A DNA stretch of 64,000 nt from Alphaproteobacteria bacterium (lineage in GTDB: Bacteria > Pseudomonadota > Alphaproteobacteria > G963923945): the NCBI GenBank assembly GCA_965199175.1, contig OZ240684.1, forward strand, positions 1,058,337 through 1,122,336. The letters run 5' to 3'. Numbering within the stretch: the first letter of the stretch is position 1; each line of letters opens with the position of its first letter. This document shows, in pieces, positions 30,558 through 62,510 of this stretch. Made by a program: the position numbers and the translations under genes. The notes beneath the pieces were generated by a model, which saw nothing but the letters and a program-made list of their open reading frames with translations, did no database searches and was not told where the DNA came from.

Positions 30558-31060
30558 AAGCTATCTCACTTGCAAAAAATGAAAAATATGCTGGTTGCTC
30601 TTTCGCTTTAAAGTTCTTTCTTAAGGTATTCTGAGATTTTTTGTCTTAAGGTTTTTGTTTCAGGAAACAAATGGGTTAAGGAAATGAATGGGTTAAGAAA
30701 ACGAATATATGTCGTTGCTCAGGCAAATATCCGACAATCTCATACCTGAAATTTAAATTTTTTAAAGAGCATCATCCAGTAAAACACAAGCCCGGTATTG
30801 GTCACAGGATAACGATTGAATATCTCTGTTAAGCCACCTCAGTCATCAGGTCAATTATGACTCTTTGCATGAAAACACAAAACATTCGATTGATCTTATC
30901 ATTTGGATTGATGCTTGAGAATTGGTAAAAAATAGGCTTTATTTTATAATATGATGGGTTCTGTGAAGTAAAATAATCACAAAAATAATAATCTGGAAAA
31001 ATGACAATGCATAAGCATAAAATGCATAAGCATAAAAACAGCATACGAAAAAAGAAACAA

Positions 31061-37998: not shown

Positions 37999-38072
37999 TG
38001 GCTGGGGCGGCAGGATTCGAACCTGCGATCACGGGATCAAAACCCGATGCCTTACCGCTTGGCTACGCCCCA
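37999..38072 (-). tRNA. tRNA-Gln (TTG)
   Basis: The reverse complement TGGGGCGTAGCCAAGCGGTAAGGCATCGGGTTTTGATCCCGTGATCGCAGGTTCGAATCCTGCCGCCCCAGCCA has anticodon TTG. Confidence 0.9.
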
Positions 38073-38153: not shown

Positions 38154-38495
38154 ATGTCTGAGAGAATGATTTCCCAAACACCCGTTCGTGGCCAATTCAT
38201 TGTCTATGTTGAATGGGGAAAAGAAGGGATGAGTTTCCGCGATTTTACCGATAAAGAGCGGCGGCGGGATATCGTGATTTTACTCTCGCAAGGATCAACA
38301 GCCAGCCGATGGGCGGTGGGGGAGGCTCTGGCTGATTTAGGATACAAAGCATCCGATGACCTGGTCGGGAGCGACCTGGCGTGGCTGGATGAGCAAGGGC
38401 TGATTGAACAAGGAGCCGGAGGGCGGTGGTCCCTGACGACAAGGGGGCGCGATGTCGCACGGGGCCGGGCCTGGCATCCCGGACTGCGCCATTGA
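38154..38495 (+). CDS. Hypothetical phage protein
   Basis: 113-aa ORF directly upstream of, and translationally coupled (TGATG) to, the terminase small subunit gene. Confidence 0.4.
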   Translation: MSERMISQTPVRGQFIVYVEWGKEGMSFRDFTDKERRRDIVILLSQGSTASRWAVGEALADLGYKASDDLVGSDLAWLDEQGLIEQGAGGRWSLTTRGRDVARGRAWHPGLRH

Positions 38496-39028
38496 TGAGC
38501 AGACTATCTAAAATAGACCGGCTTCCGCTGGAAATCCGGCAGGAAATCCGGCGGCTGTATTTAGAAGAAAGTTACAACCTGAAGCAAATCGTCAGCTGGC
38601 TGGAGCGGCAGGGAATTGAAGCATCGCGCTCTTCGGTTGGTCGCTGGATGAAGAAGGCTCGTGAAGTCGCCGTCCGGCTGGCCGAAACAACACAGATTGC
38701 CAAAGCGATTGCTCAGGATATCGGGCCGGATATGGATCATTCAAAGACCCTGAGTGTCCTGGTCAACCTGGTTCAGGATGCCGCATTTCGGGTTCTGCAG
38801 GCTGGCACGCTGGAGATTAAAGAGATCGAGTCCTTAGGCCGTCTGGTCAAAAACACCGCAACGGCCCTAAAATTTAACACCGAACAAGAAGCTAAAGCAC
38901 GCCTGGAGAAGGCGGCCCGGGACAAGGCAAAAACCGATGCCAAAGCTCTCGCCAAAGTCGCCAACGAACAGGGCTTGTCGCCTGAATCGATTGCGGCCTT
39001 GAATGCTGCCTTAGGGATCAAAGATTAA
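38495..39028 (+). CDS. Phage terminase small subunit-like protein (Mu gp27/DUF3486-like)
   Basis: 177 aa, helical and basic; in position before terL. Confidence 0.6.
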   Translation: MSRLSKIDRLPLEIRQEIRRLYLEESYNLKQIVSWLERQGIEASRSSVGRWMKKAREVAVRLAETTQIAKAIAQDIGPDMDHSKTLSVLVNLVQDAAFRVLQAGTLEIKEIESLGRLVKNTATALKFNTEQEAKARLEKAARDKAKTDAKALAKVANEQGLSPESIAALNAALGIKD

Positions 39029-40515
39029 TGAAACCTTCGGTCAACACATTGTTGCCATATCAGCGCCGGGTCCTCCAGGCGGCGCAGCAACACTCAGTCT
39101 TGGTTGTTGAAAAATCGCGGCGGATTGGCATCACCTGGTCCCTGGGAGGGGCCGCCGTCCTGACGGCGGCAGCCCGGCGGGATGCCGGGGGCATGGATGT
39201 GCTTTACATTGGGACCTCCCGCGATATGGCGCGCGAGTTTATCGATGTGGCGGCCCAATGGGGTGAAGGGGTGGATGCGGCCATCGCTGAATATGGCGAG
39301 ACTTTGTGGCAGGGAAATGGTGAAAGCATTCAGGCGTTTCGCCTGAAGTTCAAGTCCGGATTTGAGGTTCTGGCTCTTTCATCACGGCCCCGGTCGCTGC
39401 GGGGTCGGCAGGGATTTGTCATTATTGATGAGGCGGCCTGGCATGACGATTTACCTGGCCTGATGAAAGCAGCGGTTGCGATGCTGGTTTGGGGTGGTCG
39501 GGTCTGTGTCGTTTCAACCCATAACGGGGTTGATAACCCGTTCAATTTGCTGGTCCAGGATTGCCGGTCAGGGGATAAGAAACATGAAGTGATACGGATT
39601 ACATTTTCTGATGCAATCAGAGACGGGCTGGCCGAGCGGATTGCCCACCAAAAAGGCGTTCCTTATTCGGCTGGTTTTTCGGTGGATTTTGAGGCAGGCA
39701 TCCGGGCTGAATATGGGGCAGATTCCGGGGAAGAACTGGATGCAATCCCGGCAGCAGGCCGGGGGGCTTTTTTGAATGCTGCCCTGATAGAAGCCCGGAT
39801 GGACCGGAGCATTCCGGTTTGTTGCTGGGCCGGGGATGGGGACCTGAAAGACTGGATCAAAGATCATCTTTCACCAATCATCGAAGGATGTGATCCATTG
39901 CTTTTAACCTATGTTGGCATGGATGTTGGCCGGACGGGTCACCCTTCAGCCATTTATATTCTGCAAACGGATCGAACTTTGAGGCGGCTGGGCCGGGGGT
40001 TGATAGAATTGCGCCGCCTTCCGTTTTCGGTTCAGGAAAAGATTGCTGATTTTTTGATTACCAGCTTGCCGCGGCTGATTTTGTTTTCGATTGATGCCGG
40101 AGGGATTGGGGCCGGCTTAGCCGAACGCCTCAATCAGAACTGGGGCAGCCTGGTCCGGGAAACCAAGCTGAGCCGCGAATGGTATCGCATCGCCATGCCG
40201 CCGCTCAGAGCTGCATTCGAAGATGGTTCGATTACCATTCCGTCATTTCTTGATTTACGATTAGATTTACGGGCCATTCGTGAGGAAGGGGGAATCGCAA
40301 AAATTGGTGGCGAGGCTTACAAAGGCAGTGATGGCCAGCCCCGTCATGGCGATGCAGCCATGGCTCTGGCCCTGGCCTATCAGGCCAGCCGGGAGCAAGA
40401 CAGCGCATATGCCTATGATGCCTGGCATGATCCGAATCCGGATGAAGAAGATATCCCTGACCCGGTCTGGGCCGGAGCCAGGGGGACATTTTATAAAAGA
40501 GGGCTGGCGTTATGA
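39028..40515 (+). CDS. Phage terminase large subunit (Mu gp28-like)
   Basis: N-terminal LLPYQRRVL..., Walker A-like VEKSRRIGITW, a C-terminal nuclease region with acidic residues. 495 aa. Confidence 0.8.
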   Translation: MKPSVNTLLPYQRRVLQAAQQHSVLVVEKSRRIGITWSLGGAAVLTAAARRDAGGMDVLYIGTSRDMAREFIDVAAQWGEGVDAAIAEYGETLWQGNGESIQAFRLKFKSGFEVLALSSRPRSLRGRQGFVIIDEAAWHDDLPGLMKAAVAMLVWGGRVCVVSTHNGVDNPFNLLVQDCRSGDKKHEVIRITFSDAIRDGLAERIAHQKGVPYSAGFSVDFEAGIRAEYGADSGEELDAIPAAGRGAFLNAALIEARMDRSIPVCCWAGDGDLKDWIKDHLSPIIEGCDPLLLTYVGMDVGRTGHPSAIYILQTDRTLRRLGRGLIELRRLPFSVQEKIADFLITSLPRLILFSIDAGGIGAGLAERLNQNWGSLVRETKLSREWYRIAMPPLRAAFEDGSITIPSFLDLRLDLRAIREEGGIAKIGGEAYKGSDGQPRHGDAAMALALAYQASREQDSAYAYDAWHDPNPDEEDIPDPVWAGARGTFYKRGLAL

Positions 40516-42071
40516 AATTGACAACCGCTGCCAAAAATATCAGCGAGAAAATCCAGTCGCTGTTTCAAAATAAACCTTCAGGAAATGCGTTGCGGATTGG
40601 GCCGGGGGATGATGGGCCGATGGGTCGGGTTAATCTTATGACATTGGCCAGAGCATCCTCAGCTGCTGATAGCGGGGATCCTTCGGCATGGTTCCGGCTG
40701 GCGGAATATCTGGAGCGTATTGATGCACATTATGCTGCCGTCCTGCAGCAGCGTAAAAATCACCTGATCCAGATGCCGATGCGTATTGAAACTGGTCCGG
40801 AAGTCCCAATCCAGGCCCGGCGGCTGGCGGAAGATTTTTTAGAAAGTGGCATCTTGCAAGAACAGCTGGGTTATTTTCTTGATGCGATTGGGAAAGGAAT
40901 CGCCATCATAGAAATGCGGTGGCGCAGCATGAATGGGCGGTGGTTGCCGTTTGAGTTTATTCATCACGGGCCGCATCTTTTTGCTTTCGATCAAAAAGGT
41001 CAAATTGGGTTGCGGGACCAGGCCGGGCGGTGGAAACAGCCGCCGCCAGCCCGTCTCCTCACGCCACGGATTGGATTGAAGACCGGATTGCCCTGGCAGA
41101 CGGGTCTGGCCCGGCCGGCCGGGCTTTCTATCATAGCCAAACAATTTGCCATCAGAGACTGGATGACTTTCCTGGAAACCTATGGCCGGCCGATACGGCT
41201 GGGTCGCTATGGCCGGGGGGTCAATTCCCAAGAAAAAAAGGAACTCTTAAACTCAGTTTATCATATCTTTTCTGATGCTGCGGCGATCATTCCCGATGCG
41301 ATGAACATTGAGTTTATTCAAGCCTCAACACGGGGCAGTCAGGAAGGGTATCAGAAGCTGGCCCAGTACATGGATCAGCAGCTTTCCAAGCTGGTCCTGG
41401 GCCAGACCACAACCACGGATGCAATCGCCGGCGGTCATGCGGTCAGCAAGGAACATGATAAGGTGCGCAGAGATATCGGCAGGGCTGATGCGCGGGCTAT
41501 TGAAAGATGCCTCAACAACCAGCTGATGCCGTGGTTGATTGGATTTAACCTGGATCAGGGATATGCCGGCTGGCCCGGTCAGGCCCTGCCCCAGTTCCGG
41601 ATAGGTGAGGAAAAGGAAGAAGAGCGAACCAATGATCCCCGGGCCTGGGCGGCAGCGTTAGAGAGCCTAACCAGTCTGGGGGTTGAGATTTCAGCTGATG
41701 AAGCCCGGCGGCGGCTGGGGCTGGGGGCACCACAAAAAGGTGAGGCTGTGCTTAAACTGCCCACACAACAGCGGACAATTGCAGGAGGAGCTGAGGGTGC
41801 CGCAAAACCGGATGACCGGGATTGGTTGGCGGAATTGGCCGCTGAGACACTGACCGAATGGGATCACGAAAGCATCACCGGTCCCTTAGGCAAGGTGGTC
41901 TTAGAATCTCAAACTTACGATGATCTGGGAACCCGGCTGGCAACCGTTGCTGATCAAATTCCCACCAAAAAGGTTGAAAATCAGTTGGCTCAGAGCCTGT
42001 TTGCAAGCCGGCTGGCTGGACGGGTCGGGGTTGAGGAAGATTCCGGAACGCAGGGACCCGTTAAAAAATGA
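40512..42071 (+). CDS. Phage portal protein (Mu gp29/DUF935-like)
   Basis: 519 aa, follows the terminase. DUF935-like conserved regions. Confidence 0.75.
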   Translation: MKLTTAAKNISEKIQSLFQNKPSGNALRIGPGDDGPMGRVNLMTLARASSAADSGDPSAWFRLAEYLERIDAHYAAVLQQRKNHLIQMPMRIETGPEVPIQARRLAEDFLESGILQEQLGYFLDAIGKGIAIIEMRWRSMNGRWLPFEFIHHGPHLFAFDQKGQIGLRDQAGRWKQPPPARLLTPRIGLKTGLPWQTGLARPAGLSIIAKQFAIRDWMTFLETYGRPIRLGRYGRGVNSQEKKELLNSVYHIFSDAAAIIPDAMNIEFIQASTRGSQEGYQKLAQYMDQQLSKLVLGQTTTTDAIAGGHAVSKEHDKVRRDIGRADARAIERCLNNQLMPWLIGFNLDQGYAGWPGQALPQFRIGEEKEEERTNDPRAWAAALESLTSLGVEISADEARRRLGLGAPQKGEAVLKLPTQQRTIAGGAEGAAKPDDRDWLAELAAETLTEWDHESITGPLGKVVLESQTYDDLGTRLATVADQIPTKKVENQLAQSLFASRLAGRVGVEEDSGTQGPVKK

Positions 42072-43375
42072 TTGATATCAAACCGTTGCCGCCGGAAGAA
42101 GCGGTACAATTTTTTCGCTCCAAAGGCTATGCGATTGGTTTTTCGTGGCGAGATATTTGGAAGGAAGAACATGCTTTAGCCTTTACAGTCGCCAAGGCAA
42201 TGCGCATTGATATCCTTGAAGATATTCGCGCCGCTGTCGATCAGGCCATATCGAAAGGGATTGCTTATTCTGAGTTTAAAAAAAATCTTGAGCCAATCCT
42301 TCAGGCCAAGGGCTGGTGGGGGCGCAAAAAACTCCGGGACCCGAAAACCGGAAGACTGGTCAATGCCCAGCTGGGGTCTAACCGGCGTCTTAAGATTATT
42401 TTTGATACCAATACAAGAATGGCCTATGCGGCTGGCCGGTGGCAGCGCATCGAGGCGGTTGCCGCGCAGCGGCCCTATCTGAGATATGTTGGGGTGCTGG
42501 ATGATCGCATCCGAGAACAACACCGGGGGTGGCATGGCACGGTGCGGTTGGTTGGTGATGGTTTCTGGGACAGCCATTACCCACCCAATGGCTGGCGATG
42601 CCGGTGTACGGTTGAGCAGCTTTCGCAAGATGATATGGATGCGTTTGGGTATGAAGTCTCCCCGCCGCCCAAAATCAAACATCGCCTGGTAAAAAACCGC
42701 CGAAACGGGCGGATGATGCGGGTCCCCGAAGGCATTTCCCCGGGATTTGATTATAATGTCGGCAAAGCCCGGCTGCGGGCCTATATCCCGCCGCCTTTAG
42801 ATGAGGGACCATTGCCGGTTTCCTTTCCTGCCGGGGTAAAACTGCCGCCATTGCCGCCAGCCCGGTCCTTGCCTGCCAGTATTTTAATTGATCCATCGAC
42901 TCCGGATGAAGAAGCGGTGGCACAGTTTCTGGGGTCATTCAGCCTCAGTGCCGGGCGATCAGGTGCCGGGCCGCAGGAAGCATTTGTGTTTATTGACAAG
43001 GCCGGGGAGCCGTTAGCAATCGGGCAGGATCTTTTCCGGCGAAGTGACGGGCAGCTTAAGGTTGGGAAACGGGGCCGAAAAAAATATCTGATGGCTTTGG
43101 CTCTGGCCCTTCAGGACCCGGATGAAATCTGGTGGCATTGGGAGCGGTCGCGTGATGGCCGGGCCTTATTGAGGCGGCGCTATCTGGCCCGGTTTGTATT
43201 CCCGCCCGGGGGCACCCCCCCTGCGGGTCCCCCAGGCGGGGGAATAATCCCAGGGGTGACAGTTTTTGACTGGCATAAATCAGGCTGGCGGGGTGTTACG
43301 ATTTTTCAAAGCGAAGGTGAAAATTATCTATTTAATCTCCGCAAAGGAACTTTGGCCTATCGCCGCCAAAAATGA
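42068..43375 (+). CDS. Phage head morphogenesis protein, MuF/SPP1 gp7 family
   Basis: Region REQHRGWHGTV...PNGWRCRC is typical of Phage_Mu_F. The C-terminal part carries an in-frame GC-palindrome insertion (FPPGGTPPAGPPGGG). Confidence 0.85.
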   Translation: MIDIKPLPPEEAVQFFRSKGYAIGFSWRDIWKEEHALAFTVAKAMRIDILEDIRAAVDQAISKGIAYSEFKKNLEPILQAKGWWGRKKLRDPKTGRLVNAQLGSNRRLKIIFDTNTRMAYAAGRWQRIEAVAAQRPYLRYVGVLDDRIREQHRGWHGTVRLVGDGFWDSHYPPNGWRCRCTVEQLSQDDMDAFGYEVSPPPKIKHRLVKNRRNGRMMRVPEGISPGFDYNVGKARLRAYIPPPLDEGPLPVSFPAGVKLPPLPPARSLPASILIDPSTPDEEAVAQFLGSFSLSAGRSGAGPQEAFVFIDKAGEPLAIGQDLFRRSDGQLKVGKRGRKKYLMALALALQDPDEIWWHWERSRDGRALLRRRYLARFVFPPGGTPPAGPPGGGIIPGVTVFDWHKSGWRGVTIFQSEGENYLFNLRKGTLAYRRQK

Positions 43376-43562
43376 AAAAGGCCGAAGCGGCGCCCCCTTC
43401 GGCCATTCAATCGGTTACGGACAGTCAGACGCCACATCTCGCCGATTGAATATAAGGCGACTATAGCGCGGTTGGCGTTCTGGGGCAAGGGGAAACGCAT
43501 AGAAAAAGCCAACGGCATTTAGCGGCGGCTTAACGGGGCTTTGAGAGGGGGTTGGCGGTTGA

Positions 43563-43766
43563 TTTTGTCTGGCCGGGGGACCCGGTTACCTCTGGGGGAC
43601 CCGTAGGGGGGGAACCCCCAGAGGGAAAACCGGAAAAACACCAATTACCTCTGGGGGACCCGTAGGGGGGGTACCCCCAGAGGGAAAAACAAAGACAGGG
43701 GCACCCCCAGGAGGAAAATCTGATACTCCTGGGGGACCCGTAGGGGGGGCACCCCCAGGAGGAAAA
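43563..43766 (+). repeat. Cluster of three GC-rich palindromic repeat elements (core cctctgggggacccgtagggggggtacccccagagg)
   Basis: Three copies spaced ~60-75 bp apart. Each forms a ~10-bp GC stem around a loop containing the palindrome gggggtaccccc. Confidence 0.85.
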
Positions 43767-43787
43767 TATGCCAATCTGGATGATCTG

Positions 43788-44213
43788 GTGGCGGCCTATG
43801 GCCGGGACCGGATGATCGAGTTGAGCGACCGCGATGGAACCGGATCGATCAATGCCGATGTGGTCGCTGCCGGGCTGGCGGCTGCCAGTGCTGAAATTGA
43901 TACCTATCTGAGGGGGGTGGCCCGGCTGCCGCTGCCAGATCCACCACCTGTGCTTAAACGGCTGGCGGTGGATCTGGCCTATGTTCATATGCTGGCTGAC
44001 CGGGCCGGGGAGAATGACCGGGCCATCCGGGGTGAAGCGATTGCGCTGTTGGACAAGATTGTGGCCGGGAAAATTAAACTGGGGCTGGATGCTCTGGCAT
44101 CACAAACTGCGGGGCACAGCGTCCAGGTGTTGTATCCGGATCACCGCCGTTGGGGAACATTTGGTTCCCCCGTGGGGGGTCCCCCCCTACGGGACCCCCA
44201 CGGGTCATTATAA
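43788..44213 (+). CDS. Phage head-tail joining protein, Mu gp36/DUF1320-like
   Basis: ...IDTYLRGVARLPLPDPPPVLKRLAVDLAYVHML... matches the DUF1320 core. GTG start. The in-frame upstream sequence YANLDDLVAAYG also looks native, but the only ATG (43768) is out of frame. Confidence 0.55.
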   Translation: MAAYGRDRMIELSDRDGTGSINADVVAAGLAAASAEIDTYLRGVARLPLPDPPPVLKRLAVDLAYVHMLADRAGENDRAIRGEAIALLDKIVAGKIKLGLDALASQTAGHSVQVLYPDHRRWGTFGSPVGGPPLRDPHGSL

Positions 44214-44647
44214 TGACCGGGGTGCGTCTGACCTGGCGGGGGATGGACCAGATTCGCCACCGCCTGACCGCGTTGGCCGGGCGGGATCTTAGCCACCCAA
44301 TGGCGTTGATTGCCGCCCATTTAGAAACCGCAACGCGTCATCGTTTTGGCTGGGGGACTTCTCCGGATGGGAAAGCCTGGAAGCCTTCAAAGCGGGTGCT
44401 TGCTCATGGGGGGCAGACCCTGGTTAAGAGCACAATTTTACGCGACAGCATCACCAGCCGCTCCTCGGACAAAGAGGCTGAGGTCGGAACCAATGTGATT
44501 TATGGAGCCATCCATCAGCTGGGCGGCCAGGCCGGACGCAAGCATGCAGTCAGGCTCCCGGCCCGGCCTTATCTGGGGCTGTCTTCGCGGGATGGGCAGG
44601 TTGTGGAAAAAATTATCGCAGACTTTCTGCGTAAAAGCCTGGCGTGA
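44213..44647 (+). CDS. Phage virion morphogenesis protein (Mu G / P2 gpS tail-completion family)
   Basis: 144 aa (MTGVRLTWRGMDQIRHRLTAL...). The upstream 60 nt of the ORF track are palindromic repeat sequence. Confidence 0.55.
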   Translation: MTGVRLTWRGMDQIRHRLTALAGRDLSHPMALIAAHLETATRHRFGWGTSPDGKAWKPSKRVLAHGGQTLVKSTILRDSITSRSSDKEAEVGTNVIYGAIHQLGGQAGRKHAVRLPARPYLGLSSRDGQVVEKIIADFLRKSLA

Positions 44648-45069
44648 TGATCATGATTACTCAAGTTATTTCTCAATTACAAAAAATAAAGACCCTGCGC
44701 CATGTAGCTGGCGCAGCGGCTCTGGCGGCGGTGAATGAAAAGTCCCTGCCCCCCAGCCCGACAGCTTATGTGGTCCTGCTCAATGAAGCTGCCGGGAACA
44801 ACCGGCTGACCGCCGGGATTGAGCAGGTGGTGACCGAAAAGATCGGGGTCATTTTGGTGGTCAAAAATCTGCGGGATGCCAAAGGTGAAGCGGCGGCCAA
44901 AGAAATTGAAACCCTGAGGGCAGCTGTGTTGGATCAGCTGATTGGCTGGTTGCCTTCGGGATATGACGATCCGTTGACATTTTCAGGCGGCGACCTGGCC
45001 GGGATGGAAGGTGGCGCGGTTTGGTATCAACTGATTTTCACGGCCAAACGGCGTTTTCGAAAAATTTAA
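44644..45069 (+). CDS. Hypothetical phage structural protein (possibly Mu gp37/tail-terminator-like)
   Basis: 141 aa; sits between the head-tail joining genes and the major tail gene. Confidence 0.4.
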   Translation: MMIMITQVISQLQKIKTLRHVAGAAALAAVNEKSLPPSPTAYVVLLNEAAGNNRLTAGIEQVVTEKIGVILVVKNLRDAKGEAAAKEIETLRAAVLDQLIGWLPSGYDDPLTFSGGDLAGMEGGAVWYQLIFTAKRRFRKI

Positions 45070-45079
45070 AGCGTAAAGG

Positions 45080-46019
45080 AAAAAATATGTTGCAGTTCAG
45101 AAAACGCCTGGTCCTGGCAAAGGTTGAAACAACTTACGGGGTTGATGCAGCCCCGGTCGGGGGGGATGCTATTTTGCTGCGTGAGGTCACCCTCACCCCT
45201 TATGCCGCAGACGCCCGGGACCGGGGGACCATCCGCGATGCATTAGGGGCATCGCCGCAAACCCTGGCCAATCGCCATGTGGAATTGACGGCCCAGGTTG
45301 AACTGGCCGGGGCAGGAACAGCAGGCAGTGTTCCCGGCTATGGTCCCTTGCTCAGAGGCTGTGGGTTTTCCCAAACCATTTCAGACGCCGATGATAATGA
45401 AAGCGTCATCTATCAACCCGTAAGTACCGGGTATGAATCAGTCTCGTTTCATTTTTACATCGATGGGGTTCGGCATAAGATGCTCGGCTCACGGGGCAAT
45501 GTGGCCTTCCGGATTGAAGCCGGAGAACCCCCGGTTATGGATTTTTCCTTCATCGGTTTGTGGGAGACACCAACCACAACCACCGCACCACAGGCCGATT
45601 TTACAGCCTTTCAAAAACCACTGGCCGTAGGGAAAGACAACACGCCGGTTTTTATGGCCCATGGAGCCAGCGCGATTGCCCGATCGATTGAGATCGATAT
45701 GAATAATGCGGTGAAACATATCGCGCTGATTGGGTCTGAGGAAGTCATCATCGGGGACCGGGATGCCGGGGGACGAATCAGCCTGGAAGCCAAACGGCCC
45801 AATGAACAGGATTGGTTTGCCACGGTGGCGGCTGAAAACACCGGCGCATTTACGGTGCAAAACGGCAACCAGGCCGGGGAGATTGTTGAGTTGGCTTTGC
45901 CAGCGGTGCAGATTCTGGCCCCTTCCTATGAGGATTATGAGGGCTATACCCTTTTTTCAGCCAATATCAAGGCCATCCCCCATAACGGTGATGATGAACT
46001 GGTTTTGACGGTTAAATAA
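45080..46019 (+). CDS. Putative major tail protein (lambda gpV position), possibly a capsid/structural protein
   Basis: 313 aa, high expression-style RBS, immediately upstream of the TAC/tape-measure genes. The family assignment is positional only. Confidence 0.45.
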
Positions 46020-46028
46020 AGACCAAAT

Positions 46029-46290
46029 GACCTCTGGGGGACCCGTAGGGGGGGTACCCCCAGAGGAAAAACCAGAAGACCCGTAGGGGGAAAACACCAA
46101 TTACCTCTGGGGGACCCGTAGGGGGGGTCCCCCCAGAGGGAGAACCAGAAGACCCGTAGGGGGAAAACACCAATTACCTCTGGGGGACCCGTAGGGGGGG
46201 TCCCCCCAGAGGGAGAACCAGAAGACCCGTAGGGGGAAAACACCAATTACCTCTGGGGGACCCGTAGGGGGGGTCCCCCCAGAGGGAGAA
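46029..46290 (+). repeat. Tandem array (~3.7 x ~72 bp) of the GC-rich palindromic element plus a conserved linker
   Basis: Unit cctctgggggacccgtagggggggtccccccagagggagaaccagaagacccgtagggggaaaacaccaattac. The linkers are identical between units, so it is not CRISPR-like. It ends at the RBS of the next gene. Confidence 0.9.
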
Positions 46291-46305
46291 CCAAGGAGAA
46301 AAAAT

Positions 46306-46647
46306 ATGTTCCGATTTGATCCCGACTATCAATTTTCCTGGCCGGTTTCTTTCAAAATGCCTCTGAATGGGGGAAAATGGGGCCAGCGCAGTTTTACGGT
46401 CACATATAAATATATGGCCGGGAAATTATTAACAACAGCCCTGAAGGGGGCTGAGAGTGATCCGCAGAAACTGCGCAGCCTTTTGAAAGAGGTCATGGTT
46501 TCAGTCGAAGGCATTGCCGGGACGGATGGAGAGGAACTGGATAGTTCCCCGGACCTTATTGATCAGCTGTTGGATGTGCCGGCGATTTTGAATGCAATTT
46601 TTTATGCCTATATCCAGGCATTGGCCGGGGTTGCGGAAAAAAACTGA
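46306..46647 (+). CDS. Putative phage tail assembly chaperone
   Basis: 113 aa, acidic, with position equivalent to lambda gpG ahead of the tape measure gene. Confidence 0.5.
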   Translation: MFRFDPDYQFSWPVSFKMPLNGGKWGQRSFTVTYKYMAGKLLTTALKGAESDPQKLRSLLKEVMVSVEGIAGTDGEELDSSPDLIDQLLDVPAILNAIFYAYIQALAGVAEKN

Positions 46648-46694
46648 TTGAAGCCGCGCGGGTCTGGGCGCGCGGCAGGAGGGATCATGAATTA

Positions 46695-46919
46695 TTGGCC
46701 ATTCATCCGGAAAACCAAACGGCCGTGCAGGCGTTTTTGGTCGGGTCCAGTCAGTGGCGGTTTGCCAGCGGGATTCCAGTCGGGCTGGATTATGAGGGGC
46801 TGAGGGCCGCATTAACATGGCACCGCCTCCGGCTCAGTCGGGATGACTTTACGAGGGTAAGGGTTTTGGAGGCAGCGGCGTTGGAAGCGATGCAAAAAAA
46901 GATGGCTAAAAAAACATGA
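46695..46919 (+). CDS. Hypothetical small phage protein (possible chaperone frameshift partner, gpT-like)
   Basis: 74-aa ORF with a TTG start, between the TAC and tape measure genes. A short overlapping ATG ORF starts at 46687 in another frame. Confidence 0.3.
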   Translation: MAIHPENQTAVQAFLVGSSQWRFASGIPVGLDYEGLRAALTWHRLRLSRDDFTRVRVLEAAALEAMQKKMAKKT

Positions 46920-49768
46920 CTGATCTGGAAGTCTCTCTGGTTCTTAAGGCCGACAGCCAGGGGCTGGTCGGTCAGGTCAGGCTGTCTAAACAAGAACTGG
47001 ATCGGCTCAGCACCGCTGGCCGGGATGCCGGGAAGGGTCTGGGCCGGTATGGTCGCGAAGCCAAAAAAGCCGGGACTGCAACCAAAAATCTCAATCACCA
47101 AAGCCGGGACCTGCAGAGCCAATTCCGGGGGCTGAAAGCAGCCATTGCCGGGCTGGGGCTGGGGCTGGCGGCCCGTGAAATGTTCCGGGCCGGGGCAGCC
47201 ATGCAGGGGATTGAGTCAGCATTGCTGGCGGTCTTTAAGACCACCCGCCGGGCCAGGTCGGAGTTCCAATTTATTCAGACTGAGGCCGAGCGGCTGGGGC
47301 TGAATCTTGAATCGGCGGCCTCGCAATATTCCAAGCTGGCCGCGGCTGCGGATGGGACAGCTCTGGCCGGAGAGCCGGTGAGAGAAATCTTCATCGCGGT
47401 CAGTGAAGCCGCCCGGGTGTTTAATCTTTCGGTTGCTGATACTTCCGGAGCGTTGCGGGCATTCCAGCAAATCATATCCAAAGGCAATGTGCAGGCCGAA
47501 GAATTGCGCAACCAGCTGGGTGATCGCATTTACGGTGCCTTTAATAAGGCCGCCGCCGCCATCGGGGTCACGGTGGAGCAACTCAATGATCTGTTGCAGG
47601 CCGGGGAAGTCACCGCCGAAAAATTACTGCCACCCCTGGCCAGAGAGTTGCGCAAAGCAGCCGCCCCAGGATTGCCCAAGGCCCTGCAAAACGCAACAAC
47701 AGAAATGGAGCGTCTGGGCAATGCGGCGACCCTTTTGAAGCGAGACTTTAATCAAGGCGGCTTTATGGCCGATCTGGCCGAGGCCACCCGTGATTTAACC
47801 CAGGCCATGCGGTCCCCGGCGTTGCGGCAATTCAGCCATGCCCTGGGTGGGAATGTCGCCGCACTGACGGCGGCGGTTGGTGGATTTGCCGCAGGAAAAC
47901 TCGGTGTCCTGGCCTATGGCGCAGCTGTCAGGTCCGCTGCGGCATCAACCGGGACGCTGACCAAACGGCTGAAAGGATTGTTGAGTCGGTTCAATGTCCT
48001 GGGGCTGGCATTGGCGGCCCTGAGTTTTCTATCATTCAAAGACAGTGATGCTGAACGGGCGATTGAACGGCATTCAGCCAATTTTGAGGATCTGGGAGAA
48101 AAAGCCACCACCGCCGCCAAAGCGGTGGCCAATATTCAATGGGACCTGGATAAGGAGCGTGTGGCGGCTGATATTACATATATTGAAGACGAGATCAGTC
48201 GGTTGCACGGCGCATTGGCGGCAAACATAAGCACTATTTCCGGCGGTGACGCCCTATCGGATGGGGTCGCCGCCGGGTTGGACCTTGTACGAAAAGATAT
48301 GGAAGCGGGTCTGATCACGGCAGATGAGTATTCTCATTCTGTTCAAAAAATACTGGCGCAAAATAATGATCTTTTAGGCAAAGGAACAGAACTGACGGCA
48401 CAGCAGATTGAACATTTTACCCAGCTGAGGGCGGCTGTTGTGGCATTGACGAATGCTCAAATCAGACAGGAAGAACTGGCAAAGCAAAACCCGAATCGAC
48501 CCAAAACTGACATAAAAAATCCTGCGCCCAGGACAGCTCCGGAGCCAGGGGAAAAGGCCACAAAAATCATTGCTGAACTGAAAGCTGAGGCTGAGGCTGT
48601 GCGCATTCTGGCTCTGGCCCGGCTGCAAGGCCAGGAAGCCCTGCAGAAGGCTGAGGCAGCTCTGGCCGCTGAGGCGGTATTTCGTGGTGAAGCCAAAGAT
48701 GCAACCGCAGCTCAGAGAGCCGAGATTGAAAAACTCATTACAACAATTACCCAGGCCGAAGCCGCTGAGGAATCCCGGCAGAAAACCCTGGCCGAACATG
48801 AGGCGGCGGTCAAAAATATAAAAACCCAGCTGGTGGCGACTCTCCCGGCCTATGAACGGGCACGGGCAGCGGCCAATCAATGGCATCGCGATGTTGTCGC
48901 CGGTCTGGACCCTGCGGTGAAAGGATACCAACAACTCAAGGCCCAGGCCGATGAGGTCCATCGTCGAATGCTGGCAAATGCCGATGAAGGCATAGAAAAA
49001 AATCTGTCCTTCAGCGAGGCGGCAGCCCGTGGGTTCACCCAATTTGCTGAGGCCGCCCAAAATGCCGCCGGGACGGCTGAGCGGGTCGTCACCGGGGCTT
49101 TCTCAGGCATGGAGAGTGCCCTGGCTCAATTTTTGGTCACCGGTAAGATCACATTCACATCTTTTGTCAATTCAATTCTGGTCGATATCGCACGGCTTCA
49201 GATCCGCCAAAGCATCACCGGTCCTTTGGCGTCAGTTTTGGGTGGGGCTTTGGGGGGTGTTTTTGGCGGCAGCCCGGCAGCAGCCTCTGCCGGGGGTGGT
49301 CTCTCTCTTGGCGGGGGTTTTGATGCGGCCTTTGATTTGTTCCATTCTGGTGGAATTGTCGGGCAGATGGCGGCCAGACGCCAGGCCGCCATCACGGCTT
49401 TTCAGGATGCTCCCCGATTGCATAGCGGGGGCCGGATCGCCGGGTTGCGCAGCGGGGAGGTCCCCATCATCGCCCAGACCGGTGAGGCGGTTTTTACGCC
49501 CCAACAAATGAATAATGCTGATGCGTTGTTGCGGGCTGCGCTGGCCCGGCCAACAGGCGGGGTCACTGTTGCGGTCAATATCCAGCAACCAGCCGGATTG
49601 CCACCAGCCCGGGTTGAACACCGGGATGATGGACAAGGCGGTCTTGAGATTGATGTTGTGATCGAAGAGATCACGGACCGGTTAAATGACGATATTGAGC
49701 GGGGTGGTGGTTTGTATCCTGTGCTGGCGAAACGCTTCACGGCCAAACCCGGTGGGGGCGGATCATGA
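46916..49768 (+). CDS. Phage tail tape measure protein
   Basis: 950 aa, Ala/Gln/Glu-rich helical, with Gly-rich segments and a C-terminal region typical of TMPs. Confidence 0.85.
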   Translation: MTDLEVSLVLKADSQGLVGQVRLSKQELDRLSTAGRDAGKGLGRYGREAKKAGTATKNLNHQSRDLQSQFRGLKAAIAGLGLGLAAREMFRAGAAMQGIESALLAVFKTTRRARSEFQFIQTEAERLGLNLESAASQYSKLAAAADGTALAGEPVREIFIAVSEAARVFNLSVADTSGALRAFQQIISKGNVQAEELRNQLGDRIYGAFNKAAAAIGVTVEQLNDLLQAGEVTAEKLLPPLARELRKAAAPGLPKALQNATTEMERLGNAATLLKRDFNQGGFMADLAEATRDLTQAMRSPALRQFSHALGGNVAALTAAVGGFAAGKLGVLAYGAAVRSAAASTGTLTKRLKGLLSRFNVLGLALAALSFLSFKDSDAERAIERHSANFEDLGEKATTAAKAVANIQWDLDKERVAADITYIEDEISRLHGALAANISTISGGDALSDGVAAGLDLVRKDMEAGLITADEYSHSVQKILAQNNDLLGKGTELTAQQIEHFTQLRAAVVALTNAQIRQEELAKQNPNRPKTDIKNPAPRTAPEPGEKATKIIAELKAEAEAVRILALARLQGQEALQKAEAALAAEAVFRGEAKDATAAQRAEIEKLITTITQAEAAEESRQKTLAEHEAAVKNIKTQLVATLPAYERARAAANQWHRDVVAGLDPAVKGYQQLKAQADEVHRRMLANADEGIEKNLSFSEAAARGFTQFAEAAQNAAGTAERVVTGAFSGMESALAQFLVTGKITFTSFVNSILVDIARLQIRQSITGPLASVLGGALGGVFGGSPAAASAGGGLSLGGGFDAAFDLFHSGGIVGQMAARRQAAITAFQDAPRLHSGGRIAGLRSGEVPIIAQTGEAVFTPQQMNNADALLRAALARPTGGVTVAVNIQQPAGLPPARVEHRDDGQGGLEIDVVIEEITDRLNDDIERGGGLYPVLAKRFTAKPGGGGS

Positions 49769-50301
49769 CGCAAGAACCCCTCATTCCCGCGGGAACACCC
49801 CCGGCAGGAAGCCAACTCTTTCAAAAATGGCCGGAGATACTCCCGCTGCCCGAGCGGGATGGCTATCAGCTGAAATTGAATGACGGCGTCATGCGCACAA
49901 GTATGGAAGGCGGGCCACCACGCGCCAGACGGGTCACCACCGATGTTGAATCGTTGTATCAGGCCCGGTTCGTTTTTGACGAAGATCAGTTCCTGACCTT
50001 CCAGGCCTGGTTCCAGGAAATTGGAGCCGGCGGTGCGGCGGCGTTTTTAATCCCGCTGCGCAACGGGCTGGGGCTGGTTGAACAACAGGCCCGGTTTGCC
50101 GGGCCGTATGAAGCCCGGCTGGATGGGCATCTCTGGCGGGTTACAGTCTCACTGGTGGTGCGTGGAGCACCCATGCTGTCAGGTGAAATGCTTGAACTGG
50201 TTCTGGCCGAACCGATCAATGGCCTGATCAATGCCATTGATCAATTCAGCATCCTGGTTCACGCCACCCTGCCCGATCATTCAATTTTTGGCTTAAATTA
50301 G
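49765..50301 (+). CDS. Phage minor tail protein (lambda gpM / GTA g12-like position)
   Basis: 178 aa, translationally coupled to the TMP gene. Confidence 0.5.
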   Translation: MTQEPLIPAGTPPAGSQLFQKWPEILPLPERDGYQLKLNDGVMRTSMEGGPPRARRVTTDVESLYQARFVFDEDQFLTFQAWFQEIGAGGAAAFLIPLRNGLGLVEQQARFAGPYEARLDGHLWRVTVSLVVRGAPMLSGEMLELVLAEPINGLINAIDQFSILVHATLPDHSIFGLN

Positions 50302-50313
50302 AGAGATAACATT

Positions 50314-51690
50314 ATGACCACGACTTTGCGTGAAAGAATCACCGCCGCCGTTACCGCGATTGAAACGGCAGGCCGTAAATTGCATCAGATTGTTCATGGC
50401 GGGGCTGAGATGACTGTCTCAACCGATGGTGGCCCGGTTAAATCACTGGCTAAAGTGGTTGCCGATCTGGAGCAACAAGGCGGGGAGATCCCGGCCCAGG
50501 TTGCCCATGCCCAAAGATACCGGACTGAGGCACGGGAAGCCCGGGATGAAACCCGGGATGCTCTGCAAACCGCGCGTATCACCAAAGCCAGCCCGACCGA
50601 AGCCCGTGCGGGCACCAACAACACCAAACTGATGACGCCGTTGCGGGTTAAGGAAGCCACAGATACTCGCCGGGCCACCGGAGCCGAGGCCCGTACCGGA
50701 ACCAATAATACTAAGCTGATGACGCCGTTGCGGGTTAAACAAGCCACAGAGCATTTCAATGCTCCCCGTTTTTCTCAGACCTCGCCCTATATCCAAACCA
50801 TCAAGACACCCGGTGATACCCGGCATTACTACCCGGTCCAGCTGGGGGGTGGGTCATTTCTGGGCGATGTGCTGATCCAAAGACATCAACATATGGATGC
50901 TGTGTATAGTGGGGGGCTTTTATTTGATGTGCGATGCTATCCAGATGGACGGGGGTATTGGCCGAAACGATATGATGTTCGGGCTTATCAGGAAGTGGTT
51001 TACCGAAACACAGGAAGCCACACACCACAATTTATTGCCAAGCTGCAAGTGGATGCCGGGGCACGGCAAGGAAAAACAGTTATCTGGCTGAGGGGTGCGA
51101 CCACCTATCGGGTGTGGTTGTCGGATGGGGTGGCGGCACTCTCCAATGCTCAGGGACGCATTGGGACTCAAACGTTTGGGGTGTTGGATAAAAACTATGC
51201 TCCCCTGTTGCCTAAATACACAGATAGGGGGGGATTGCCGGTTGGCACTATAATTGCCTTTTCAGGTCCACAAACTGTCCCCGGTTGGCTCCGTTGCAAT
51301 GGGGCGCGGGTTCTAAAGAGCCATTACAACGACCTCTATAATATCATCGGTCACAATTACGCATTGACCACAGACACCACCGCTAACAAAGCCAACCATT
51401 TCCGCGTACCTGATACACGCGATTTATTCATTCGCGGAGCGACACAAAGCAACCCGGTCTCGTCAATCAGAGAACAAGGTGCTTTGAGTGTTCCCCCAAC
51501 TGGGTGGGGAGTATTCGGGCATCATCCTGCACCTACCAGGCCGGCCACCAGAGGGCGACTCCTTGTTGGCAGTGGGATTGGGGAACACAGAGAAGTTTTG
51601 GAGAGCGTTTTTCAAGCCGGACAAAATGTAAATGTGACGGGCAATGTTGTCCCCCGACATCTTAATCTTATCCATTGGATCAAATTTTAA
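50314..51690 (+). CDS. Phage tail fibre protein with tail-collar domain
   Basis: GTIIAFSGPQTVPGWLRCNGARVLKSHYNDLYNIIGHNYALT...FRVPDTRDLFIRGA matches the collar motif. Tandem 20-aa repeat (TNNTKLMTPLRVK[EQ]AT) in the N-terminal shaft. Confidence 0.75.
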   Translation: MTTTLRERITAAVTAIETAGRKLHQIVHGGAEMTVSTDGGPVKSLAKVVADLEQQGGEIPAQVAHAQRYRTEAREARDETRDALQTARITKASPTEARAGTNNTKLMTPLRVKEATDTRRATGAEARTGTNNTKLMTPLRVKQATEHFNAPRFSQTSPYIQTIKTPGDTRHYYPVQLGGGSFLGDVLIQRHQHMDAVYSGGLLFDVRCYPDGRGYWPKRYDVRAYQEVVYRNTGSHTPQFIAKLQVDAGARQGKTVIWLRGATTYRVWLSDGVAALSNAQGRIGTQTFGVLDKNYAPLLPKYTDRGGLPVGTIIAFSGPQTVPGWLRCNGARVLKSHYNDLYNIIGHNYALTTDTTANKANHFRVPDTRDLFIRGATQSNPVSSIREQGALSVPPTGWGVFGHHPAPTRPATRGRLLVGSGIGEHREVLESVFQAGQNVNVTGNVVPRHLNLIHWIKF

Positions 51691-51705
51691 CCTGAGGTGT
51701 CTTTT

Positions 51706-52227
51706 ATGAAAATCTATCACTACAACCCTGAAACGGGTCTTTTACTCGGTGAGGACAAAGCAACCCAATCACCCATTCTGGTTGATGACGAAGGCCGGGA
51801 ACTGCAAGAACCAGATGCAGAAAATCCTGACCATTGGCTGATCCCGGCTTATGCGACTGAGACAGCCCCGCCTAAGGCTGGCAAAAATCAGCAAGCTGTT
51901 TGGGGCGGGGACTCATGGTCATTGCAGGCCATACCCACGCCACCGCCAGAGCCACCGCCACCATCTCTGAGTGAGCGCAAGGCCACAATGGTGATCCGCA
52001 TCAAGACGGAAGCTCGTTACCGGATTGAGGCCGTCATGCCAACCTGGAAGGTGGTGCGTTCTCTGACCGGTGGCCCGGCAGTTGGGACTGATACCCAGGC
52101 TGAGGCGCAAAGATTACGGGCTGTTTCAAACACCCTGGAAACCCAGATCAACGCCATGAATGCTGAGGCACTGGACGCCTTTGATCCCGGCGATGATACG
52201 CATTGGGTAGAAAGTCCGGACTCATGA
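51706..52227 (+). CDS. Tail fibre assembly protein (Tfa family)
   Basis: N-terminus MKIYHYNPETGLLLGE and the PDHWLIP motif are typical of Caudovirales tail-fibre assembly chaperones. Confidence 0.65.
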   Translation: MKIYHYNPETGLLLGEDKATQSPILVDDEGRELQEPDAENPDHWLIPAYATETAPPKAGKNQQAVWGGDSWSLQAIPTPPPEPPPPSLSERKATMVIRIKTEARYRIEAVMPTWKVVRSLTGGPAVGTDTQAEAQRLRAVSNTLETQINAMNAEALDAFDPGDDTHWVESPDS

Positions 52228-52775
52228 AACCGCCCGCCTGGTCACAAAAAGCACAAGAAACGCTGGCCCAGTCCCCGGCTGATGAAGTCGTTCTGGAAAC
52301 CTTCGAATTCCGGCATCCTCTGTTTATCACAGAAGATAACCAACCGGCCCCAATCCGGGTGGTCAGGGATATCCGGCCCGGCGATGTTCTGCGGGCCAAA
52401 CTGGAAAGAAATGCCCCGGTCAATGGCGGGCAATGGGTTGATTTTATTTGCGTGGCCTTTGAGGCCACCTTACCAAAAATAAGCGAAGAAGCCGCCGCCG
52501 ATTTTATTCTGACCATTGACAACACTGATCCGGTGATTGCCCAGTCACTCCGCCAGGCTGCAACCGGCAGCGACCCGGTATTGATGATCTTCAGGCCCTA
52601 TCTGGCCAGTGATCTCACAACACCACAATGGCTGCCGCCGCCGGAATTTACACTCAGCCAGGCCCGTATCGGTGGTGGGCAGATCCAGGCCCGGGCCAGG
52701 GCATTTAATCTGGCCGATCGTTCGGTCCCGTCCCGGCTCTATCAATCCGGCGATTTTCCCGGCCTGGTCCGATGA
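52224..52775 (+). CDS. Phage minor tail protein (lambda gpL / GTA g13-like position)
   Basis: 183 aa. The ATG overlaps the upstream stop (ATGA). It precedes the NlpC/P60 gene as in lambda M-L-K-J. Confidence 0.5.
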   Translation: MKPPAWSQKAQETLAQSPADEVVLETFEFRHPLFITEDNQPAPIRVVRDIRPGDVLRAKLERNAPVNGGQWVDFICVAFEATLPKISEEAAADFILTIDNTDPVIAQSLRQAATGSDPVLMIFRPYLASDLTTPQWLPPPEFTLSQARIGGGQIQARARAFNLADRSVPSRLYQSGDFPGLVR

Positions 52776-53161
52776 GTTGGCCGACAAAATATATCGGGCT
52801 GGCCTATGATCAGAGCGAAAAAAACGGGCACACCTGCTGGTCGCTGGTCCGGGCCATCCAGCTGCAAGAGTTTGGTCGTAAGGTCCCCGATATTCCCTAT
52901 CACCACAACATCCGGACTCGTTTGATTTTTTTTCGGGATCATCCCGAACGGCAAAGATGGCAAGCGGCAAAAACACCGCGGGAAGGCGACTGTGTGTTGT
53001 TGGCTCAGGCCCGGTTCCCCAGCCATTGCGGGGTCTGGAGCCAGGCTGATGGCGGAGGCGTGGTTCATGCGGTCGAAGGGGTCGGGGTGGTCTGGCAGAA
53101 CAGAGCGGCATTGAGGGCCCATGGCTGGCGACTGGAAGGATTTTATCGATATGCCCCATAA
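52772..53161 (+). CDS. Phage tail NlpC/P60-family peptidase (lambda gpK / GTA g14-like)
   Basis: Cys motif GHTCWSLV and His motif HCGVW; 129 aa. Confidence 0.7.
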   Translation: MSWPTKYIGLAYDQSEKNGHTCWSLVRAIQLQEFGRKVPDIPYHHNIRTRLIFFRDHPERQRWQAAKTPREGDCVLLAQARFPSHCGVWSQADGGGVVHAVEGVGVVWQNRAALRAHGWRLEGFYRYAP

Positions 53162-55478: not shown

Positions 55479-55566
55479 AAGGAGCACTCCTGACCAACAC
55501 CGGCCGCATGTCGGCCAACCCGCCACCGCGATACACGGCGGGGCATATTTTAGAGTGAGTTTATTC

Positions 55567-55782
55567 ATGGAGTCTAGTTTTGCCGACCAAAATCAATGCA
55601 CACCCATCAAGCCCGTGGCCGCCTATGTCGGCGGCAAACGCCTACTAGCCAAACGGATTATCGAGACAATCGGGACGGTCCCTCATGTCTGCTATGTTGA
55701 GCCTTTTGTTGGCATGGGTGGGGTCTTCTTTCGCCGTCCGGCCCGGCATTCTTTCTTGGCATGTTTGGGGAAAGTGTTCTGA
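55567..55782 (+). pseudogene. Truncated N6-adenine DNA methyltransferase (Dam/D12-class) N-terminal fragment
   Basis: AAYVGGKRLLAKRI and YVEPFVGMGGVFF correspond to Dam motifs. The ORF stops after ~72 aa and the downstream 250 bp are non-coding. Confidence 0.55.
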
Positions 55783-56041
55783 AATTAAACGGACTTGAGC
55801 ATTTTTTTCAGAAGTATCAGTTCACCGGGCCGATCCATGTCTTAGATCAGATACGCCAAGCCGCTGAGCGGGTGATGATGAAGCCGCTCACAAACATCTA
55901 GCCGCGACAAACTTATCCACAAAAAAGCGATGCAAAAGTAACCCGCCATTTACGCAAAAATAACCCGCCAGCTACAGTCTAAAACAACATCAATCACAAA
56001 GCATTGATACAGTTTCTGCCATGCCCCCATCCGGCCCGGCA

Positions 56042-62281: not shown

Positions 62282-62510
62282 AACGCTGAGACGTACTGAA
62301 ACGCTGAGACGAACTGAAACGCTGAGACGAACTGAGGCAAAAGACCTGATTTTCTTCCTGACCGGTCATTCAAATACTGGTCATTCAAATCACCGAATCA
62401 TTCAAAATCTTTTTCATCAATGCCTGTATAAAGGCATTATCATACTCAAAATAGAATCATACCGAAAATAGATATCATACTGAGAACAAATATCATACTG
62501 AGGACAGATC

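Follow-up and report, generated by a model that had tools for sequence, protein, structure and literature searches.

What is the GC-rich palindrome that recurs among the virion genes of a phage-derived block in an alphaproteobacterial chromosome, and how did it come to lie there? The locus is part of a 64,000-nt stretch of an Alphaproteobacteria bacterium genome (GenBank assembly GCA_965199175.1, contig OZ240684.1, positions 1,058,337 to 1,122,336 of the forward strand), hereafter the window, whose coordinates are used throughout. An initial annotation, made from the letters alone, noticed the repeat and proposed an mRNA-processing or stability hairpin, a packaging or recognition site, or a selfish element resembling repetitive extragenic palindromic (REP) sequences with a tropism for phages. 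Our analysis of the window, a related genome and sequence databases favors a form of the last proposal, in which the repeats are probably a lineage-specific, GTAG-tagged, REP-like selfish palindromic element that accumulates in prophages.

The window was inspected by reading 42.8–46.8 kb, by repeat finding and with Tandem Repeats Finder (TRF). A full copy of the repeat is a nested palindrome of ~50 nt, and nine such copies lie at 43194–46294 and nowhere else in the window. The core, GGGGGACCCGTAGGGGGGG, allowing at most one mismatch, matches nine times between 43215 and 46273 (seven on the plus strand and two on the minus strand) against a chance expectation of 0.04. A covariance model built from all family members, and therefore with the window copies in its training set, scores these sites at 54–68 bits, while its best unrelated match in the 64 kb reaches 13 bits. 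Both earlier statements, that at least nine copies occur within 3 kb and that none occurs elsewhere in the 64 kb, are thus confirmed.

The first copy (43194..43245, minus strand, 54.2 bits, outer stem CCCGCCT/GGGCGGG) lies inside the PBECR2 domain of the MuF gene and is read in frame as part of the peptide ..FPPGGTPPAGPPGGG.. Three full copies on the plus strand follow in the gap after MuF, as had been described. Copy 1 (43582..43633) has the stem CCTCT/AGAGG, 55.7 bits and a folding energy of -28.1 kcal/mol; copy 2 (43641..43692, 68.4 bits, repeat family D1) has a 64-nt unit in common with the array units described below, at 89–92% identity; and copy 3 (43719..43770, stem CTCCT/AGGAG, 59.9 bits) has a 3′ arm that includes AGGAGG and, in the gp36 alignment, adjoins codon 2–3 of gp36. 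Reading of the sequence added a half copy on the plus strand at 43697..43718, comprising the right arm only (GGGGCACCCCCAGGAGGAAAAT), which repeats the 3′ end of copy 3 in direct orientation and represents ~1.5 units of a 47-nt tandem duplication. The next full copy (44160..44211, minus strand, stem CCCGT/ACGGG, 54.4 bits) directly precedes the Phage_tail_S start at 44213. The initial annotation had correctly placed a copy before this gpG-like start, but frame analysis shows that this copy also falls within the 3′-terminal part of the gp36 open reading frame (ORF) (..SPVGGPPLRDPHGSL*). Finally, a tandem array on the plus strand (46018..46293) extends from the tail tube gene toward the tail assembly chaperone (TAC) gene, ending 12 nt before the Shine-Dalgarno (SD) sequence and ATG of the latter (46306). 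The array itself was recognized from the start; its dimensions, first given as 3.7 units of ~72 bp, are 3.8 units of 73 nt by TRF (score 508, 97% matches, units 97% identical). It contains four full copies (46024–46075, 46097–46148, 46170–46221 and 46243–46294; 58–64 bits each), and each of its linkers holds a loop-only partial copy (46078–46095, 46151–46168 and 46224–46241).

An alignment of 79 distinct copies fits a consensus unit of ~50–60 nt, (C)CAATCC-NNN-YT-GGGGG / ACCCGTAGGGGGGGYA / CCCCC-AR-N'N'N'-GGA(TTGG). Its 16-nt centre is nearly invariant and holds the tetranucleotide GTAG, of which G22, T23, A24 and the next G are invariant or at least 90% conserved. The stem measures 13–17 bp, the upper value being approached (~17 bp) where the palindrome reaches CCAAT/ATTGG, and its outer part varies among copies yet stays complementary. 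Paired cells make up 79.6% of the alignment compared with 70.8 ± 0.8% in shuffles, and double-sided compensatory cells number 138, compared with 59.7 ± 9.6 in shuffles (0/500) and 29–88 in slid registers. Single stem pairs show up to four Watson-Crick types (UA 25, CG 14, GC 12 and AU 2 at columns 9/43), and the unpaired cells come mostly from internal array units with linker in place of the left arm. To judge from this alignment, the hairpin has been kept by compensatory change while its asymmetric centre stayed invariant. The window copies fold, as had been anticipated, into hairpins of -28 to -38 kcal/mol (z -1.8 to -4.5). A further suggestion, notable G-quadruplex potential on the coding strand, proved marginal, as canonical motifs (loops ≤7) are absent from that strand, relaxed ones (loops ≤12) are all that occur, and a hairpin of about -30 kcal/mol should dominate.

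Outside the window, the exact core was found in one of 185,579 species-representative genomes, an alphaproteobacterial metagenome-assembled genome (MAG) of 2.10 Mb (OZ000551.1) that carries ~103 copies (≤3 mismatches) in 16 of ~263 8-kb blocks. The MAG and the window genome are sister genomes, with host DNA ~80% identical; their ETF-QO proteins share 85% identity, and no other sequence exceeds 74%. The core gave 0 matches in IMG/VR, and the element had no match among INPHARED phages. Two matches in Joint Genome Institute (JGI) metagenomes were poly-G/A sequences without the right arm and were rejected. A known RNA family was likewise discounted, as Rfam 15 gave no match to the element, the best being a chance hit to mir-331 (26.8 bits versus a gathering score of 80). 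In the collections searched, the family is new and restricted to the lineage of these two related alphaproteobacterial genomes.

Seven of the MAG blocks belong to two prophages. A Mu-like myovirus prophage (1,480,001–1,512,000, the four contiguous blocks L011, L010, L004 and L008) carries ~27 dispersed copies on both strands among genes for a Mu transposase, TerL, a MuF-ART protein, capsid, sheath, gpN and gpP, and is only 25–32% identical to the window block in gp27 and TerL. A podovirus-like prophage (blocks L006, L003 and L013, across the chromosome origin) carries ~29 copies and encodes a holin, a lysozyme, tail tubular proteins, a major head protein, a T7-type portal and TerL. The remaining nine blocks belong to the ordinary host chromosome. 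Copies there are intergenic and mostly form head-to-tail arrays, whose linkers are identical and whose periods range from 40 to 109 nt; some (L014) are highly degenerate. Their contexts are mfd|tRNA-Ser, fabG|fabD|rpsF, the 3′ flank of dnaJ, ferredoxin|helicase, purC|zeta, PNPOx, an amidohydrolase and hypF|hypC. The claim that the repeat is confined to the prophage therefore stands within the window and falls in the sister genome, where arrays lie between housekeeping genes and at hypF|hypC. Abundant copies in non-phage intergenic DNA, which the initial annotation took as the mark of an ordinary REP family, are found in part in these host arrays, but the enrichment in phage DNA is still strong.

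In the MAG, ~30 of ~41 independent sites lie in the two prophages, which together span at most ~76 kb, or 3.6% of the genome. The density is ~1 site per 1.5 kb in the myovirus prophage and ~1 site per 4.5 kb in the phage remnant of the window, compared with ~1 site per 185 kb in the MAG host chromosome. Across the two genomes phage-derived DNA is 40–120 times denser in the element than host DNA, and its density is still ~9-fold above that of host intergenic DNA alone. One explanation of these figures is passive accumulation, in which an ordinary host REP without phage preference persists in prophages while a streamlined 2.1-Mb genome purges the other copies and old host copies are under-counted. 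The small, gene-dense genome would suit this explanation, as would a census by exact 19-mers and the presence of host arrays, some highly degenerate (L014), in nine 8-kb blocks of the MAG. Because the census relied on exact 19-mers, host DNA unselected for the element (~68 kb in total) was scanned with the structure-aware covariance model, and neither 46 kb of window host DNA nor 21.6 kb of MAG host DNA fetched via synteny contained a copy, not even a degenerate one. Additionally, the window block holds four sites, though it was acquired after the two genomes split (or lost from the MAG), while its 46-kb flanks hold none. Prophages and other acquired regions of Pseudomonas fluorescens reportedly contain no REP-type repeats (PMC2718517), which makes the pattern in the window and its sister genome unusual and does not fit passive accumulation. 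Together with the contrast in density, these observations make a purely passive origin unlikely. By these counts the element is strongly concentrated in three unrelated prophages or phage remnants, and we infer that prophages are its preferred targets or permissive sinks.

Several loci indicate that the copies arrived as secondary insertions. At hypF|hypC the MAG carries a composite insert of ~117 nt, placed immediately upstream of the hypC SD sequence and flanked by the SD-like motifs AAGAGGA and AAGGAGA, while the window junction is uninterrupted. The in-frame, opposite-strand copy in MuF, reported correctly at the outset, is an insertion of 11 residues (PPGGTPPAGPP) missing from 10 of 10 aligned homologs (50–72% identity). 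An AlphaFold model places it between predicted β-strands 366–378 and 394–403, with a predicted local distance difference test score (pLDDT) of ~50 versus 76–86 on both sides; because the mean pLDDT of the model is a moderate 66, this placement is supportive rather than strong evidence. Compared with eight homologs, the Mu transposase of the MAG myovirus has four inserts, comprising an N-terminal one in a variable region that does not allow sizing, a clean one of ~14–15 aa that corresponds to the whole hairpin, and composites of ~19 aa and ~25–30 aa. The filled and empty hypF|hypC sites, the MuF insert, the transposase inserts and a C-terminal insert in gp36 show, as far as comparative alignment can, that the copies are secondary insertions, and the head-to-tail arrays with identical linkers similarly show local multiplication. 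An idea prompted by the 33-nt net insert in MuF, that the outer stem is copied from the target site, is unsupported, since the clean transposase insert is the whole hairpin.

Fifteen intragenic copies occur in nine independently supported genes, 13 of them in seven phage genes of the MAG. The genes with in-frame copies are MuF and gp36 in the window and, in the MAG, MuA, TerL, a portal-sized ORF, capsid, gpN, gpP and a second TerL. Only four of the five stop-free frames are used, none of the copies being read in the TAG frame, and the encoded peptides are GGPVGGAPP (five copies), LGVPPLRVP-type (four), WGTRRGGTP (three) and GGAPPxGPP-type (three). Because the periods of the intergenic arrays are mostly not multiples of 3, the preservation of frame within genes points to purifying selection on phage genes after insertion.

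The same intragenic copies bear on the proposal that the repeats are phage-borne functional RNA hairpins, that is, 3′-end protectors or processing sites of late-operon mRNA that tune neighbouring genes (high tube versus low TAC). REPs are known to stabilize upstream mRNA (PMC3733652), and the intergenic copies of the window, which follow MuF and the tube gene and have folding energies of about -30 kcal/mol, are co-oriented with transcription. Over all intergenic clusters, nine are co-oriented with the upstream gene and four opposed, a bias that is not significant. A role in transcript ends is difficult to reconcile with the 15 copies inside coding sequences, in both orientations and in three unrelated phages, or with copies in host operons and divergent promoter regions, and the repeats have no U-tract. 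Because the window block is defective, without capsid genes and with a gp36 that has no start codon, selection for fine-tuned late expression is also doubtful there. We consider such a function quite improbable, and the mRNA-processing or packaging signal offered by the initial annotation is unsupported on the same grounds. When transcribed, the element would fold into stable stem-loops, and these could buffer mRNA against decay, but nothing points to this as the reason for its presence. Intrinsic terminators were also rejected as an identity, since none of the nine window copies is flagged as one on the plus strand and their 3′ flanks are A/G-rich (GGGAAAA, GGGAGAAC).

Among known repeats, the closest format is that of the GTAG REPs, which are defined by an unpaired terminal GTAG followed by a 6–9-bp stem with a very short loop (PMC3733652, Di Nocera et al. 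2013). The inner sequence of the element, GTAG-G6/7-(C/T/A)A-C5/6, matches this format, giving a short GC-rich palindrome in which a near-invariant GTAG leads directly into a G/C stem with a 2-nt spacer (GTAG-GGGGGG-YA-CCCCC). Other likenesses are the ~100 copies per genome, the intergenic position of host copies within operons, the narrow-lineage distribution, the occasional clustering in blocks (as in GTAG-23 of T. roseum) and the occasional intragenic copies; REP families clustered in blocks and intragenic REPs encoding 20–80 aa are both on record (PMC3733652). Unlike GTAG REPs, the element forms head-to-tail arrays rather than inverted dimers, carries GTAG although Alphaproteobacteria mostly have REPs of the CGTC type, and has most of its independent sites in prophages, where REPs are normally scarce. 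As to dispersal, which in GTAG REPs is mainly extragenic and downstream of ORFs, host copies in the MAG are intergenic, while 15 phage copies are intragenic. GTAG REPs associated with REP-associated tyrosine transposases (RAYTs) were reportedly also treated by Nunvar in 2010 and by Bertels and Rainey in 2011. The GTAG, the covarying hairpin, the ~100 copies per genome, the intergenic arrays and the 40–120-fold phage density together favor the selfish REP-like element with phage tropism that was one of the first suggestions.

Rickettsia palindromic elements (RPEs) offer a second comparison, being alphaproteobacterial palindromes that lie in frame within ORFs, add short peptides, leave the host ORF intact and can insert several times in one gene. 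RPE-1 measures 100–150 bp. The window element is ~45–60 nt and of the GTAG type, whereas RPE-4 and RPE-6 of Rickettsia conorii are CGTC REPs (PMC3733652), and the genes it targets are overwhelmingly those of phages (transposase, terminase, portal, capsid, baseplate and MuF) rather than housekeeping genes. The element thus does not match the described RPE families in size or sequence class, but it does match them in frame-preserving insertion with an intact host protein. Bacterial interspersed mosaic elements (BIMEs) and REPINs, the paired REPs that form long hairpins, share with it regular arrays, conserved linkers, two complementary arms that give long hairpins and a second related motif (TTGGGGYACCCC...GGGTTTATTTAAATC) combined with full copies; they differ in that the units of the window element are in direct rather than alternating orientation and its two arms are not two complete REPs but sit on either side of a single asymmetric centre. 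MITEs, a class of miniature transposable elements, have terminal inverted repeats and a target-site duplication; the window element is palindromic over its whole unit. The second motif, TTGGGG(T/C)ACCCC ... GGGTTTATTTAAATC, often stands upstream of full copies and appears as WGTPKQDLNKPGGTP when intragenic; sites are L001 5590–5705, L015 7540–7620, L016 4620–4680 and the MuA and ParB-like ORFs of the MAG. The combination of this motif with full copies suggests BIME-like composites of two unit types.

The near-invariance of the 16-nt centre would suit a sequence-specific binder, and the repeats might accordingly be phage protein-binding or decoy sites, either BIME-like gyrase or IHF sites serving Mu-type replication or mimics of the repeats of CRISPR (clustered regularly interspaced short palindromic repeat) systems acting as RNA anti-CRISPRs. 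BIMEs bind gyrase, and Mu needs a central gyrase site. Copies scattered through coding regions and host operons, with no defined position in the phage, do not fit such sites, and no sequenced phage in IMG/VR or INPHARED carries the element. Solitary CRISPR-repeat mimics are known in phages (PMC10651486), but the array spacers of the element are identical and the sequence examined showed no cas genes. A binding or decoy role is, on balance, very improbable. The arrays themselves are not CRISPR arrays, because the linkers within each are identical, and periods of 40–49 nt leave no room for spacers.

A REP-like selfish element that builds up in prophages could be explained as follows. The element would be non-autonomous mobile DNA, moved in trans by an enzyme of the host lineage that recognizes the hairpin and its GTAG centre, a candidate being a RAYT-type HUH transposase acting on single-stranded DNA. 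It might build up in prophages because phage DNA tolerates insertions and perhaps offers more single-stranded or replicating target. Selection would then retain only those intragenic copies that preserve the frame and lengthen surface loops. Slippage or unequal recombination could enlarge the arrays. Finally, same-orientation copies on either side of the capsid module may have recombined, removing ~3.6–4 kb together with the gp36 start codon. A more far-reaching version is that of a phage-tropic REP, actively mobile, with prophages as its main habitat and vehicle, preferential insertion into replicating (single-stranded) phage DNA, in-frame survival within working virion and transposase genes, transfer in virions and rare seeding of the host; we offer this only tentatively.

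Several observations weigh against an accumulating, mobile, REP-like element. First, in the covariation-backed helix the upstream G5 run and its flank are base-paired to the C5 run and the sequence 3′ of it, and this outer stem of 13–17 bp places GTAG in a loop instead of at the unpaired terminus that defines GTAG REPs. Second, no RAYT or Y1 transposase was found in 228 kb by tblastn with RayT/IS200 queries and a HUH...Y motif scan, the sole match being spurious and antisense to a leuB-like gene. Third, no target-site duplication could be established at hypF|hypC, because the same SD-like motif recurs in array linkers. Fourth, since only two genomes carry the family, the copies are not phylogenetically independent and the covariation partly reflects subfamilies. 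Fifth, the MAG census counted exact 19-mers per 8-kb block and could under-count degenerate host copies, the check in that genome covering 21.6 kb, and the enrichment in prophages could reflect relaxed constraint alone. Finally, the deletion proposed for the capsid genes is read from position only.

The phage-derived block to which these copies belong lies at 38155..56040 (plus strand; Pfam, PHROGs and synteny with L021, the syntenic region of the MAG). Its genes, in order, are the gp27 small terminase, TerL, Portal_Mu, MuF with a PBECR2 C-domain (42068–43375), Gp36, Phage_tail_S, tail terminator, tail tube (45087–46019), a TAC-like gene (46306–46647) and the tape measure protein (TMP), followed by distal gpL/K/J-like tail genes. 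Pfam supports the structural gene names given initially (MuF with PBECR2, Gp36, Phage_tail_S, tail terminator, tube and TMP), and the TAC assignment follows from a PHROG match and position. The block is inserted ~80–100 nt upstream of tRNA-Gln (37999–38072, minus strand) and is missing from the syntenic site of the MAG (L021:14892–15166), where a GHMP kinase is followed by the tRNA-Gln region within ~100 nt; its arrival therefore postdates the divergence of the two genomes, unless the MAG has lost it. Neither Pfam nor PHROGs identifies a protease, scaffold or major head gene anywhere in the 64-kb window, and the block also has no early or transposase region and no lysis genes. By its gene content it is a defective remnant.

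The missing capsid module coincides with the first repeat cluster, as the initial annotation had remarked. In the relative L020, whose MuF is 57% identical, four genes of 387, 259, 297 and 208 aa (a Mu-like_Pro_N protease, a 259-aa ORF, gpT and a 208-aa ORF) separate MuF from Gp36, whereas the window has a gap of 390 nt (43376..43766, plus strand; compared with L020 and L019), so that ~3.6–4 kb are missing exactly at the cluster. The gap opens with a terminator-like MuF hairpin; the relative L019 has this hairpin too and shares the sequence after MuF. The head-tail adaptor gp36 (43767..44213, plus strand) aligns from its residue 1 with position 1 of the Pfam Gp36 profile, beginning at a Tyr codon at 43767 preceded by AAA (AAA-TAT-GCC). 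Its relatives begin M-x-x-Y, and MTAY... of L020 aligns with ..GGKY.. of the window, where the first canonical in-frame start is a GTG at 43788. With no canonical start at the homologous N-terminus, gp36 has lost its start at the repeat boundary. The ATG at 43768, inside TAT-GCC, is out of the gp36 frame and opens a 15-codon ORF; the generalization that every cluster ends at a ribosome-binding site (RBS) and ATG of a structural gene consequently fails at gp36. At the other end, alignment with L020 gp36 reveals ~12 extra, repeat-encoded residues, and in ATAATG the TAA stop overlaps the start codon of the following gene. That the capsid genes were lost through the repeats, as suggested early on, is consistent with this anatomy of a missing module and a lost start codon at one cluster, but the anatomy does not demonstrate it.

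REP-type repeats are usually taken as markers of old, native chromosome. A REP-like repeat that is dense in phage DNA reverses this pattern, and its in-frame copies leave transposase, terminase, portal, capsid and baseplate genes intact. Should prophages be its main habitat, it would be a phage-tropic REP, in contrast to the REP-free state usual for prophages. If a mechanism underlies the preference, two complete 2.1-Mb genomes with ~100 copies and clear filled and empty sites would form a nearly closed system, useful for learning how REPs move, choose targets, reshape phage proteins and drive prophage decay. The element also poses a hazard to annotation. Because it is open in five of six frames, it creates spurious ORFs, and it also creates a misleading RBS-ATG that will be mis-called by pipelines and readers alike.

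Other observations concern the neighbouring genes and genomes. The MuF of the MAG myovirus (concatenated 18322–19944) ends in an ADP-ribosyltransferase C-domain compared with the nuclease-fold PBECR2 domain of the window MuF, so that the two represent different toxin-like cargo on the same scaffold. L019, the closest MuF relative at 66% identity, has a partial second MuF C-terminus ~140 nt downstream of MuF (L019 2976–3101) and, elsewhere in MuF, an in-frame segment of its own that is rich in Gly and Pro (CCGGGGGAACCGGTGGGGGGGACC); this segment is core-like by eye, but it gave no covariance-model score and was not counted in the family. At the right end of the phage block, a short ORF (55555–55782) that resembles the N-terminus of a Dam-type N6-adenine methylase (..YVGGKRLLAKRII....YVEPFVGMGGVFF..) before reaching a stop probably represents a phage methylase that has been truncated. 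Despite ~80% DNA identity, the sister genomes differ by rearrangement of host gene order, with blocks that are neighbors in the window separated by ~0.6 Mb in the MAG (window 17.7–24.2 kb versus MAG 1.344–1.352 Mb; window 31.6–38.1 and 56.1–63.8 kb versus MAG 1.957–1.979 Mb). The AT-richer intergenic DNA of the host contains many short tandem repeats with periods of 15–21 nt (7042–7526, 9750–10828, 26449, 30662–31372 and 61257–63129, densest at 62268–62509) that are unrelated to the GC-rich palindrome. Finally, ARAGORN calls a 90-nt tRNA-His with anticodon ATG at 26297–26386, overlapping the 3′ end of an aspartate-semialdehyde dehydrogenase-like ORF (25299–26390), and this call is probably spurious.

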